64,000 nucleotides of DNA from Candidatus Aquitaenariimonas noxiae. Lineage in GTDB: Bacteria > Omnitrophota > Gorgyraeia > Aquitaenariimonadales > Aquitaenariimonadaceae. Each line of letters opens with the position of its first letter. The stretch's first letter is position 1. The stretch spans positions 69,754 through 133,753 of the forward strand of contig PEWV01000071.1 in assembly GCA_002780005.1 (NCBI GenBank), written 5' to 3'. This document shows, in pieces, positions 53,201 through 59,200 of this stretch. The position numbers are program-made.

Positions 53201-56200
53201 CTCTATTTTATCTGAAAGCCACGACCCTAGCCGAAGGCTCAAAAGGGCCCTTGGGGCGTTCGACCTTATTTTGCTTGGCATAGGCGCCATAATAGGCGCA
53301 GGTATATTCGCGACTGTAGGAACAGCAGCCGCAGGCGATGCTCTTCGTCCCGGCGCAGGCCCGGCACTTATTCTTTCTTTTGTCATTACTGGTATTGCTT
53401 GCGGTTTTGCCGCTTTATGCTACGCCGAACTGGCAGCCTTAGTTCCTATATCTGGAAGCGCCTATACTTACACTTATGCTACTTTCGGCGAATTAGTGGC
53501 ATGGATCATAGGCTGGGACCTCTTGATCGAATACGGCGTAGGAAGCATAGCCGTAGCTATAAGCTGGTCCGGCTATTTTGTGGAATTTTTGCGCGGTTTT
53601 GGGCTCACGTTACCAGCATGGTCTACCATAGATTACCGATCAGCGATGCATGGCTTTGAAAAAGCCTCAGCGCTTTTAGCAGGAGGCATGCCTATTGATC
53701 AGCTGGAACCAGTCTTACAGCGCACGTACGCAGCCGTGAATACCGCGCCCCACATATTAGGTATCCCTATTATTTGCAACATACCTGCCAGTTTCATAGT
53801 GCTTTTTCTTACAGTAGTCCTTGTCATAGGCATCAAAGAAAGTGCACGCTTCAATATGATAATGGTAATGATAAAACTCGTAGTGCTAGGTTTCTTTATA
53901 GTTGTCGGAGCGCATTACGTAAAACCACAAAACTGGGTGCCTTTTGCCCCGAACGGTTTTGCCGGAATAAGGGCAGGCGCGGCAATAGTCTTTTTTGCTT
54001 ACATAGGATTTGATTGCGTTTCAACGGTTGCTGAGGAAACGCGTAACCCAAAAAGAGATATGCCGATCGGTATTATCGGATCCTTGATAATTTGCACGAT
54101 AATTTATATTATTGTCGCGGCGGTATTCACGGGGATAGTCCCGTTTTCCATACTTAAAACTTCTTTGGCGCACCAAAAAGCTGAACCGCTCGCCATGGCT
54201 ATGCAGCATATTAACCTTAATTGGGCAGCTGGTTTTGTAGCGTTTGGCTCTATTATCGCGCATATGGCGGTTTTACTTGTTCTTATGCTGGGCCAGGCAA
54301 GGATATTTTTTTCCATGTCGCGCGATGGATTATTGCCTCCTGTTTTTTCGAAAGTTCATCATAGATTTAAAACGCCTTATATAAATAGTATAATTATCGG
54401 GTTAATTGCGGCACTTTTTGCTGCCGCAACAAACATAGATGAAATGGTAGACCTTACCAATATCGGAACGCTTTTCGCGTTTACTCTTGTCTGTTTTGGG
54501 GTTATTATTTTAAGGGTAAAAGAGCCTCTCAAACCGCGCACCTTTAAGGTGCCGTTTAATCCTATAACGCCGCTTCTCGGTGTCTTAGCCTGTATTTTTC
54601 TTATAACCGGCCTGCCTGCAATTACATGGTTAAGGTTTATTCTTTGGCTTATTATAGGCCTTGTTGTATATTTCCTTTATGGGATTAGGCATAGTTTGCT
54701 CCATAAAAAAACAAGGCTTACAGCTTAAAATAACACATCACGAAAAGGTCAAATTTAGAAATTTATTTTCTTAACGAAAAGGAGAAAAATATGTTTGATT
54801 TTAAAGACTTGGGAGATATGGCAAAATTAGCCGGCCAGGCAAAAGAAATGCAAAGACAACAAGACCAAAAACATCAAGAACAGATAAAATTACTCACGAA
54901 AATATCAAGTACGCTTGACCAGATACTAGTGGAATTGAAGAATAAGGGATAGTAGCCAGTAGTCAGTAGTTAGTAGCTAGGGATTAGGGAATATAAAGTA
55001 AAATGGAGAAGAAAGCGTTTGAAGAACTGGTTTTAAAGGCCCTGGAAGAGCTTCCTGAAGAGTTTAAATCAAAGCTAGAAAACATTGATGTAGTCATTGA
55101 AGACTTGCCGGATATGGCTACTGTAAAGGCCTTAAAATTGGGCTCTAAAGGCCATCTTTTAGGCCTATATGAGGGCGTTCCGTTAAAGAGTAGGGGACAT
55201 TATTATGGTATGGTAATGCCTGATAAAATAACGCTTTTTAAGGCCAATATTGAAGGCTCATGCGGATCTTCAAATCCTGCCGATTTATACAACCAGATAA
55301 AGCATGTTCTTGAGCACGAAATTGCTCATCATTTTGGTATTTCTGATAAGCGCCTAAAAGACCTAGGAACATACTAAGCTTAAAAGCAACTTAAAGCCCC
55401 AGTTTGAATCCTGATTAAAACCCCTTCCGAATCCCAATGGCCACAACGTCCTATAATATATCTTATGTTAACTAGCCAATCTTGTACATATTAGCCAGGG
55501 GGGAGGCTTAATAAAGGCTGGCACAGACTGCTCTATTTTGTGCTCAGGCCTATTCGGGCATGACAATTCGTAATTGCTTATTGAGTTTTTAAGGCATTAC
55601 ATGGCTTTTAAGGCCTGTTTCTTTTAGGAGTGCTGATAATCCCATTACCTGTAATGATCCGTTTCTCTATGGCGTTGCCTACCCACTTAAAAGGCCTATT
55701 GGAACGCCATATATTACTAGGTTTTGGTGTAATTTGCAGGCCTTAGACGCATAGCGTATTTTTGGGTATTTTTGGGGTTCTATTCTATTGGGTATGTTTA
55801 GGTATACTCAAGTCTAAACTTTAAAATTCTATTTATTCAATTGGTATTAGTTGATCAATGGATGGTTTTTAAAGATGTCCGAATTTGCTTATTTAGTCAG
55901 GGTTTAATTTGAATAAAAAAACTAGTGGTGCGGAATAATATTTAAAAACTTTATTGCGTTTTTAGTACATAAATAAAAAAGGGCACCTATTTTGGGTTCC
56001 CCCCCATTTTATGGTTTTTTTACAGGTGCCCATGCTTCAGCCGAAGCCGAAGCTAATTTCATGTTTCGGTTACTTCCTTTTTTAAAGAGCCTTTGCTTAC
56101 TTCTACTATAGAATATATCATACGTAGAAAAAATTACAAGTGGTATATCTTGCTTTTTTAACACCTAACATTTTTTAGCCTTTTTCCCCTATTTTTATTT

Positions 56201-59200
56201 TATTTTTTTAAAAAACTTTGGCGGGTTTTTATACTGCAGAATTAAATCAAATAATCTTTTTTAATTCGTTTCAGGCTGCGAAAAATCTTGTCTTTAACAT
56301 CAGGGCATTCTTTTCTTATTTCACTTATAAGATTCTTTACATACCTTCTTTTTGTGATGTCGATCTGCGGGCATTTCTCAGGCAATTTTGGAAATTTGCA
56401 CTCTTCGGCAAATCTGGCAAGTTCATATTCTTCCACATAGGCTAGCGGCCTTATCAAATAAAGCTCTCCCCCAAACATCTTTTGCATTGGCGACATAGTG
56501 CTTATTTCGCCATTAAAAAATAGGTTCAAAAGCTGGGTTTGTATAATATCATCCTTATGGTGGGCCAGGGCTATTTTGCGGCATTTTAACTTTGCCGCAA
56601 GCCTGAATAAGGCCTTGCGCCTTATCCAGGAACACCAAAAACATGGGTTTTTATTAGGCTTTTTGGGGTCTTTAGAATCTAACTTCTTTTTGGGTTTTTC
56701 GATGTGAAACGTATAGCCGTTATCTTTTAAATATTTTCTTACTACTGAGGCGTTTTTATCATTTAAATTGATATGAACGGCTATGAGCTCATAATTTATA
56801 GGGACAAAGGCTTGCCTGTCTTTTAGGATCTTTAAAAGCGCTAAGCTGTCTTTTCCGCCAGAAACCGCAACTAGGATCCTATCCTTGTTCTTCATCATTC
56901 TGTAATCGGTCGTAGCCCTGCCTACTTTTTTTGAGATGAAGAACTCCCTTTTTGACATCAAGTTACTCATGGGGCTCTTATTTAAGGCTTGGTTTCGGCA
57001 GATTCTTTAAAGATTCCAAGGATTTTGATAGCTCACTTTCGGGCAGAGAGTAATCAGTAAGGTGCCCGTCAAGAAATTTATCATATCCGGCAAGGTCCAT
57101 GAGACCATGACCGCTGTAATTGAATAGTATCACTTTTTCCTTGCCTTCTTGTTTCGCCTTGTTAGCCTCATCGATAACACCTGCAATCGCATGGCTCGTT
57201 TCAGGGGCGCAGATAAAGCCTTCAGTGTTTGCCCATATAAGAGCTGATTCATAGCACTGTACCTGATTATAGGCCCTAGGCTCTATAAGCTTTTCTACAA
57301 TAGCCTGGCTGACTAAAGGCGCCATGCCGTGATATCTTAACCCGCCTGCGTGAATTGGCGGCGGCACAAAATTATGGCCTAGCGTGAACATTGCCATAAG
57401 CGGCGTTTGGCATGCGGTATCGCCAAAATCATAGGTATAGGGCCCCCTGGTCATTGTAGGGCAAGCGGTCGGTTCTGTGGGAATGATCTTTATCTTAGCG
57501 CCATTAATTTTGTCGTAAACGAACGGGAAGGACAATCCTCCGAAGTTGCTCCCCCCTCCTGTACAGGCAATTATAACGTCTGCGCCCCTCTCCCCTGCCA
57601 TTTTGAGCTGTTTTTTTGCCTCTAAACCTATTATGGTCTGATGCAATAGGACATGGTTCAAGACACTGCCCAGGGAATAGCGGGTTTTGCCTGATTTATC
57701 AGAAACAGCTTCCTCTATTGCCTCGCTTATAGCTATACCCAGGCTGCCAGGAGTATCAGGCATCTTCTTCAACACCTCTCTCCCGAAATTTGTTTCATTG
57801 CTTGGGCTAGCCACACATTTAGCGCCCCATATGCGCATCATGCTTTTACGGAGCGGTTTTTGGTCAAAACTTATCCTTACCATATACACCTTACACTCAA
57901 GGCCTATGAGCTTACAAGCAAAAGACAAAGCGCACCCCCATTGCCCGGCCCCTGTTTCAGTGATTAACTTCTTGATCCCGAATTTCTTATTATACCAGGC
58001 CTGCGGAATAGCCGTATTCGGCTTGTGGCTACCCGGAGGACTCATGCTTTCGTCTTTGTAATAAATGCGGGCCGGCGTTTTTAAATATTCTTCTAGATAT
58101 GTCGCCCTGCGTAACGGTGACGGTCTCCAGCGGTAAAGTATTTGGATTATTTCGTCCGGTATGTCTATCCAGCGTTTTTGGCTTACTTCCTGCTCTATGA
58201 GATTCATAGGAAAAACAGGGGCTAACATGTCCGGGGTGATAGGTTTTCCTCCCGGCCCTAATGGCGGCGGAGCAGGCGGAAGGTCTGCGGCTAAGTTGTA
58301 CCATTGCTTCGGTATGTCATTCTCACTAAGAAAGAATTTTTTTTCTTTCACAATGTACTCCTTTCGCATTGGTTAATCACATTAATTCCACTTCTATATT
58401 TGGTTTGCCATTTAATGTATTTCCGACCGGGCAATTCTTTATAAAACTCAAAAGAGCTTCCTTCCTCTTATCATCCAGCTTCGGACCTTTTAGTTCAATC
58501 GAAACATTTATAGTTTCAAACCTTACGGGCTTTTCTTTAGAAAAATCCGCATCTACTTTTACCTTGAACCCTGATATGGGAAGTTTAGCTCCTTCGATAT
58601 ACTTATTTATGTAAACGCCTACGCAGCTTCCTAAGCTGGTCAATAAAGTATCCGGAGGCGTCATACCTTTTCCTTTGGTATCTACAATAAACTCATAATC
58701 TTTCGATCTTGCCTTCATTATCGAGCCGCCGTTATTTTCGATCTCAACGCTATACATGCGCCTGTTCTTTTTTGTTGAAACTTCTCCTAATGTTTTCCAT
58801 AGTTACTACTTAGGGAAATTAAATTTAATGTCTACGTCTTTTCTTTCTTCTTCCGCTATCTTGAAGAACTCCTTCGGAGCCATTTTAAGCATACTCGCAA
58901 CCCACATGTCCGGTATCTGGGCAATTCTTATATTATAGACATTTACAGAATCGTTGTAGAATTCCCTGCGGTCAGCTATCTGGCTTTCCAGGTAACTAAC
59001 CCTTTGCTGTAATTGCATGAAATTTTGGTTCGCCTTTAAATCAGGATAATTTTCAGCAACCGCGAATAGGGTCTTCAAGGCGCCGCTCAATTGATTCTCG
59101 GCCTGAGCTGATTCGCCCACCGTCCTTGCCTGGAGGCAGGCAGTCCTCGCAAAGGTTATCTTCTCAAGCGTTTCCCGTTCATATTTCATATAGCCTTCGC

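Follow-up and report, generated by a model that had tools for sequence, protein, structure and literature searches.

Does the point at which two long gene arrays converge on a contig of the uncultured bacterium Candidatus Aquitaenariimonas noxiae (phylum Omnitrophota) mark the region where replication of its chromosome ends? The window analysed here is a 64,000-nucleotide stretch of contig PEWV01000071.1 (assembly GCA_002780005.1; positions 69,754 to 133,753 of the forward strand), in which + strand genes on the left and - strand genes on the right face each other across a gap free of open reading frames (ORFs). A first-pass annotation of the sequence alone had singled out a 28-mer within this gap as a candidate for dif, the site of chromosome dimer resolution, and had read the convergent strand switch as a probable replication terminus. 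Our results support that proposal through the significance of the match, its uniqueness in the window, the conservation of the 28-mer in other contigs and the convergence of genes on related sites. We conclude with good confidence that the 28-mer is a chromosomal dif and that it marks the terminus region.

The 28-mer and its relation to known dif sites

The 28-mer, ACGTCCTATAATATATCTTATGTTAACT, has an 11-6-11 layout in which two 11-bp arms form an imperfect inverted repeat, with the inner ATAA and TTAT complementary around a 6-bp centre (Table 1). Its sequence, coordinates and + strand orientation were exactly as first described, except that the centre, reported as purely AT, reads TATATC and contains a C. 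The 28-mer is the sole match in the window, on both strands and with up to three mismatches allowed, and no repeat or mobile element was found.

We aligned the 28-mer with the dif sequences of Bacillus subtilis and Escherichia coli (both experimentally confirmed), as checked in Kono et al. 2011 (PMC3025954), and with those of Natranaerobius thermophilus and Staphylococcus aureus (Firmicutes, both computational predictions), taken from the supplementary list of the same paper. Identity to B. subtilis dif (ACTTCCTAGAATATATATTATGTAAACT), which had been quoted correctly together with its score, reached 24 of 28 positions. The two sites share the 28-bp length, the 11-6-11 layout, TCCTA.AATATAT and TTATGT.AACT, and differ by substitutions at positions 3, 9, 17 and 24. 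The predicted sites of N. thermophilus (ACGTCCTATAATAAATCTTATGTAAACT) and S. aureus (ACTTCCTATAATATATATTATGTAAACT) matched at 26/28 and 25/28, that predicted for Chlamydophila abortus at 22/28 (counted by hand), and E. coli dif at 19/28 overall. Architecture and the inner ATAA/TTAT are shared with the E. coli site; in the XerD arm (TTATGTTAA) the two agree over 9 bases, and their XerC arms differ. At position 24 the window's XerD arm carries T, as does E. coli TTATGTTAA, in place of the A of N. thermophilus and S. aureus.

To gauge significance, we ran 300 first-order Markov simulations of the window and recorded the best score of each. The simulated maxima were 22 for B. subtilis, 21 for N. 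thermophilus and 23 for S. aureus dif, and none of the 300 reached the observed scores of 24, 26 and 25, respectively; the E. coli score of 19/28 alone is not significant against the same simulations. Within the window itself, the runner-up 28-mer matched B. subtilis dif at 18/28. Judged by its sequence, the 28-mer appears to be a canonical XerCD-type dif in every sequence-level respect, and none of the features tested failed. It is very probably a genuine dif site.

The match to B. subtilis had originally been taken to indicate a Firmicutes-like dif in spite of diderm gene content, which no longer appears surprising. The form ACNTC..ATAA-N6-TTATGT.AA.T is common to the window and the predicted sites of Chlamydiae (ACGTCTGATAATATGTATTATGTTGAAT), Acidobacteria Ellin345, Brachyspira, Thermodesulfovibrio and Syntrophus, and has been predicted in Acidobacteria, Chlamydiae, Spirochaetes, Nitrospirae and Syntrophus (Kono et al. 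2011, PMC3025954). Because it is present across diderm phyla, this form is not specific to Firmicutes, and its occurrence in a diderm lineage related to the Planctomycetes-Verrucomicrobia-Chlamydiae (PVC) superphylum is expected; C. abortus is itself a PVC relative.

Table 1. Features at the convergent junction (window coordinates)
Feature	Position	Strand	Basis
dif site, 28 bp, ACGTCCTATAATATATCTTATGTTAACT	55446-55473	+	Unique in window; alignment to known dif
Presumed XerC arm ACGTCCTATAA	55446-55456	+	Arm assigned by alignment to E. coli / B. subtilis dif
dif central region TATATC, 6 bp	55457-55462	+	
Presumed XerD arm TTATGTTAACT	55463-55473	+	Arm assigned by alignment to E. coli / B. subtilis dif
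ORF-free region, 864 bp	55378-56241	.	Between ends of + strand array and - strand array
Zincin_1 (PF06262) gene, last of left array	55003-55377	+	Pfam E 2e-26
TtcA-like PP-loop tRNA thiolation gene, last of right array	56242-56970	-	Pfam ATP_bind_3
Terminator-like hairpin and T-run, GGCTTTTAAGGCC TGTTTCTTTT	55603-55625	+	Consensus scan
AT-rich spacer, unexplained, about 340 bp, G+C about 0.30	55626-55968	.	No counterpart in relatives
Intrinsic-terminator-like hairpin GGGCACCUGU...AUAGGUGCCC then UUUUUUAUUUAU	55969-56031	-	RNA fold of 55960-56245
Short G+C-rich hairpin AGCUUCGGCUUCGGCUGAAGC, just upstream of terminator in - strand transcript	56034-56054	-	RNA fold

Convergent genes at the site and in related contigs

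Gene orientation around the site is almost uniform. According to the gene calls of overlapping public contigs, 64 genes lie left of the gap, 64/64 on the + strand; the first-pass annotation had the strand right but overstated the count as more than 70. To the right, where 13 genes, all on the - strand, had been listed, the window contains 12 complete genes and one truncated at its end, all of them on the - strand. The window corresponds, in reverse, to bases 7736-71735 of a 75,393-bp ENA metagenome contig, whose 7.7 kb beyond the window's right end add seven - strand genes and a single + strand gene, LptC (locus L001, 5113-5712, about 2 kb past the window's right end), the sole gene against its arm. 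Co-orientation towards the site is seen for 64/64 genes on the left and 19/20 on the right, or 83/84 on the 75-kb contig.

A dif site functions only when placed at the junction of replichore polarity, where resolution is guided by FtsK and the FtsK-orienting polar sequences (KOPS). Since 64 + strand genes here meet at least 19 - strand genes, the site probably marks the terminus region. B. subtilis dif, on which CodV and RipX act together with SpoIIIE/SftA, also has a terminus location in a genome with a strong leading-strand gene bias, although the host of the window belongs to a diderm PVC-related lineage. In the closed genomes of N. thermophilus and S. aureus, the predicted dif lies within 0.06% and 0.02%, respectively, of the GC-skew shift (PMC3025954).

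Many loci of about 20 kb from metagenome-assembled genomes (MAGs) labelled Omnitrophota carry 90-100% of their ORFs on one strand (strand-biased loci are L012, L015, L016, L022, L023, L030, L035, L052, L063, L068 and L072); loci labelled Sedimentisphaerales or deltaproteobacteria have mixed gene strands. Strand switches are thus rare in Omnitrophota-labelled loci, which makes the switch at dif informative. Additionally, ENA, JGI and Logan assemblies of different samples agree at 100% identity over the 2 kb around the gap, which indicates that the meeting of the two arrays was not produced by chimeric assembly. Each of the overlapping loci L001, L002 and L009 has a single exact copy of the 28-mer.

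Public metagenome contigs were then scanned with the core pattern TCCTATAANNNNNNTTATGTTAAC. At least 119 contigs carry this dif family, with one site per contig among the matches listed, and positions left free by the pattern are still dif-like in the listed contigs (T at position 28; ACT, ACG or GCG at positions 1-3). We compared gene orientation at the 42 listed contigs in which the site has 1.5 kb or more of flank in each direction with that at 134 control points placed at random in related MAG loci. Genes converged at 34 of the 42 dif sites and at 20 of the 134 control points (Fisher p = 5e-15). GC skew left and right of the site in those 42 contigs was +/- in 26 and -/+ in one. Also among the matches listed, the identical 28-mer is present in L119, L159 and L183 and a 27/28 match in L191, all between convergent genes; the bases just outside the 28-mer differ among these four contigs and the window.

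One of the contigs with an identical 28-mer, L183, is also syntenic. It carries a full-length orthologue of the Zincin_1 protein (72% amino acid identity) on the same side of dif as in the window, with a DUF134 gene between the orthologue and dif, a convergent gene opposite and a gap of about 270 bp. In L119, carbamoyltransferases homologous to those of the window (about 40% identity) adjoin the identical dif.

Sites with the centre TATATC and a shared neighbourhood were seen in L099, L106, L134, L149, L155, L156, L171, L175, L181, L183, L191, L195, L203 and L208. In these relatives the XerC arm is preceded, at 35-95 nt, by the end of a small DUF134 helix-turn-helix gene (the distance is about 200-500 nt in L191 and L159), and a lexA - DUF6504-like - dinB operon converges on dif from the opposite side; this gene set is not at dif in the window genome. 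About 45 nt on either side of the relatives' dif show motif-like conservation that is not palindromic. An extended palindrome was rejected, flank complementarity being 0.33 compared with 0.36 for shuffled partners, and the conservation of the flanks is a matter of shared synteny, not symmetry. Our literature search found no published description of dif or Xer for Omnitrophota, and none of DUF134 adjoining dif.

The mechanism that we propose is taken from the XerC/XerD, FtsK and KOPS system of E. coli, with B. subtilis as a second analogue. An odd number of exchanges between sister chromosomes after replication would yield a chromosome dimer. XerC would bind ACGTCCTATAA and XerD TTATGTTAACT on each copy of dif, and FtsK at the closing septum would pump DNA until the two dif sites meet and would then activate XerD. 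Two pairs of sequential strand exchanges across TATATC would resolve the dimer. We infer the terminus from dif and the strand switch, and by analogy XerC/XerD binding, FtsK dependence and the meeting of forks would be expected here.

The site provides a fixed landmark for an uncultured Omnitrophota genome, one that orients binned contigs and helps to check MAG assemblies, and it predicts the coverage minimum used in growth-rate (peak-to-trough) estimates. With it, the canonical XerCD-type dif is extended to a candidate phylum in which we found no such site described in the literature. As the site is canonical and its position is as expected, the understanding of dimer resolution is unchanged.

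Points against a terminus and rival explanations

Several observations weigh against placing the terminus at this site. The sign change in GC skew that had been anticipated here is present, with the skew going from +0.088 before the site to -0.092 after it and cumulative G-C reaching its maximum at 55983, but it was rejected as independent evidence of replication direction. LptC has a skew of -0.126 on the locus + strand (the window - strand), compared with +0.005 to +0.28 for its neighbours. Its skew tracks its own coding strand, indicating that the G excess in this genome is largely a property of the coding strand, and the case for a terminus therefore rests on dif and the strand switch. As noted by Kono et al. 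2011 (PMC3025954), dif need not lie exactly at the point where forks meet. At 864 bp, the gap has three to four times the length seen in relatives (about 200-270 bp), and it is partly unexplained. According to the Pfam lists, none of xerC, xerD and ftsK is in the window, which belongs to one contig of the genome. Lastly, the best relatives of the flanking TrpB-like protein (74-81% amino acid identity) are mostly from MAGs labelled Candidatus Omnitrophota, which probably places the organism in or near this PVC-related candidate phylum, and none of 80 GTDB relatives (68-81% identity in the TrpB-like protein) has a dif-like site near that gene, the best match being 19/28. Synteny through the TrpB-like gene was accordingly rejected, its neighbourhood not being conserved at this distance, and positional conservation rests on the one syntenic contig, L183.

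Xer recombinase genes were found on other contigs. A local tblastn search with E. coli XerD against the related and the dif-bearing loci showed that 11 dif-bearing metagenome contigs have a full-length XerD-like gene (36.9-41.8% identity) and that L122, the twelfth with a hit, has a C-terminal fragment alone, cut by the contig end. These contigs are of low G+C (L094, L111, L122, L123, L127, L139, L141, L151, L160, L194, L199 and L206), and the XerD-like gene lies about 3.3 kb from dif in L141 and about 7.4 kb in L123. XerD-type genes are far commoner on dif contigs than chance placement would give. The L141 protein scores above the NCBIfam XerD equivalog cut-off, and L042, a relative found through the TrpB-like gene, encodes an XerC equivalog (347 bits; NCBIfam cut-off 335). 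ftsK is reported to be conserved across the PVC superphylum, including Candidatus Omnitrophota (PMC12283558). With regard to guiding words, the E. coli KOPS GGGNAGGG points towards dif seven times and away from it three times. The words with the strongest skew are rich in purines, many such 7- and 8-mers being 100% skewed, and all follow the coding strand; KOPS-like polar words were rejected as a line of evidence because these are inseparable from coding-strand bias.

Other Xer systems also place their sites for chromosome dimer resolution at the terminus. In difSL/XerS of streptococci and lactococci and difH/XerH of Helicobacter and Campylobacter, the site is non-canonical and the recombinase gene is adjacent to it. 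In contrast, the site in the window is of the canonical XerCD type, and the 55 kb to its left and 16 kb to its right are free of recombinase genes.

dif also serves as the attachment site of integrative mobile elements exploiting Xer (IMEX), such as the CTX and TLC phages of Vibrio and the gonococcal genetic island. The 768 bp of non-coding, AT-rich DNA adjoining the 28-mer on the side of the XerD arm could be the relic of such a Xer-hijacking element, or of a prophage, integrated at a real dif; the large size of the gap would then stem from an old integration that has since decayed, and not from the architecture of a terminus. The gap exceeds those of relatives by about 600 bp, with a G+C of 0.30-0.33 compared with 0.42 for the window, and a weak word resembling positions 7-23 of dif, TAGAATATATCATACGT, is present at 56109-56125 (14/17). 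The dif core pattern is also found in 90 predicted viral contigs of IMG/VR (L209-L298), often no more than about 100 nt from the end of a contig, and one 40-kb contig, IMGVR_UViG_3300031998_000297, has two copies (L212 and L236); these copies are consistent with dif-integrated, IMEX-like elements or with prophage boundaries called at dif. However, the exact 28-mer is in none of the 90 viral contigs. Extended to 28 positions (56103-56130), the weak word scores only 16/28 against dif, no better than chance (chance hits in the window reach 18/28), and the window's best other site, at 18/28, is outside the gap. An IMEX is bounded by dif and a second dif-like site and carries its own genes, and no such element was found in the gap: it has neither ORFs nor blastn similarity to phages or plasmids, and no integrase or replication genes were found. 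The site family is one that the window shares with viral contigs, but the window differs from IMEX systems in having no second site above chance, and a relic of this kind appears improbable.

A different objection accepts the dif site and questions the strand switch, which might be a local feature such as a recent inversion or the boundary of a rearrangement, with the true fork-meeting point and the skew extremum elsewhere; the replichores would then not be anchored by the site. Only 75 kb of the genome are visible, GC skew is inseparable from gene orientation, and predicted dif and skew shift are tens of percent apart in some genomes (Kono et al. 2011, PMC3025954). Against this, 64 consecutive genes on one side and 19/20 on the other are directed at the site, and convergence recurs at 34 of 42 independent dif-bearing contigs. 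The established requirement of dif for a junction of replichore polarity also argues against a rearrangement, which we consider quite improbable. Least probable, to the point of being extremely so, is that the 28-mer has no role in recombination and arose by chance as an AT-rich quasi-palindrome in the bidirectional terminator region of two converging operons. Convergent intergenic regions are AT-rich and often palindromic, and terminator-like hairpins are near, but the RNA fold of 55375-55640, the + strand tail, does not exceed its shuffles in stability (z = +0.97). Because none of the 300 simulated windows attained 24/28 to B. subtilis or 26/28 to N. thermophilus dif, and because three other contigs retain the identical 28-mer while its immediately outer bases differ, a chance origin is effectively refuted.

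Contents of the gap and neighbouring genes

The gap had been described as the only large ORF-free region of the window. It is the largest, but a second gene-free stretch of 588 bp lies at 30731-31317, flanked by genes for an oligopeptide ABC ATPase and an NTP_transferase/GlmU-like protein, and has no Rfam match at gathering scores. On the left, the gap at dif borders the Zincin_1 gene, whose stop codon (55375-55377) ends 68 nt before dif. On the right, the border is the stop codon of the TtcA-like gene (56242-56244), 768 nt from dif; the TtcA-like protein scores 199 bits with the NCBIfam TtcA model, below the cut-off of 272.

Several explanations for the gap were tried and rejected. There is no gene call within it in three independent assemblies and no ORF of more than 53 codons under the standard code or with TGA as sense, and a hidden ORF under another genetic code was rejected on this maximum. 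A tRNA scan of the gap found none. At gathering scores no Rfam family was found in the gap, a relaxed scan gave noise alone (E>1), and the + strand fold is no better than shuffles; a structured RNA was rejected on these grounds. The - strand tail does fold with z = -2.3, which we attribute to its terminator hairpins. A pseudogene origin was rejected because tblastn against 55300-56400, with all dif-flanking proteins of 25 related contigs as queries (DUF134, DinB, LexA and others), returned noise alone. Similarly, a phage or plasmid origin was rejected after blastn against both collections gave no match.

Apart from dif, the gap is most readily explained as two facing 3' tails with the terminators of the converging operons, plus about 340 bp of species-specific AT-rich filler. 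The hairpin at 55969-56031, with a 10-bp G+C-rich stem followed by UUUUUUAUUUAU, is the probable end of the right-hand transcription unit, as modelled from the RNA fold, and would give a - strand 3' untranslated tail of about 210-270 nt. The hairpin at 55603-55625 may be the end of the left-hand unit, whose transcript would then read through dif; it is a weak candidate, as the number of consensus terminator hits is not above shuffle expectation. The AT-rich spacer between the two hairpins resembles nothing in relatives, phages or plasmids, nor does it retain traces of the genes found beside dif in relatives. Within it, three copies of a 15-nt word are found at 55752-55802 (TAGCGTATTTTTGGG, TTGGGTATTTTTGGG and TTGGGTATGTTTAGG).

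A more far-reaching reading, which we regard as unlikely, is that the lineage is near-completely co-oriented with replication, beyond what is seen in Firmicutes, with gene orientation switching at dif alone, and has a lineage- or species-specific AT-rich terminus element of about 340-770 bp beside the XerD arm. Instead of being filler, such DNA could serve in fork arrest, encode a small RNA or be a miniature dif-integrated element. Our literature search found no paper on gene-strand bias in Omnitrophota.

The surroundings of the gap are chromosomal in character and rich in housekeeping genes, including priA, def, fmt, gap, pgk, tpi, secG, leuCDB-like genes, asd, truA and an oligopeptide ABC transporter, and no integrase or phage gene is among the called genes and Pfam lists of the window. 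At the far left, positions 1-17700 hold a glycan/lipopolysaccharide-type cluster of lower G+C (0.38-0.40) with several GT2, GT4 and GT9 glycosyltransferases, methyltransferases and a PMT_2-like membrane protein. Two paralogous carbamoyltransferases are part of this cluster (8283-9992 and 15480-17225). Lastly, a homologue of bacterial deoxyhypusine synthase (PF01916) is encoded at 47649-48716, amid housekeeping genes.

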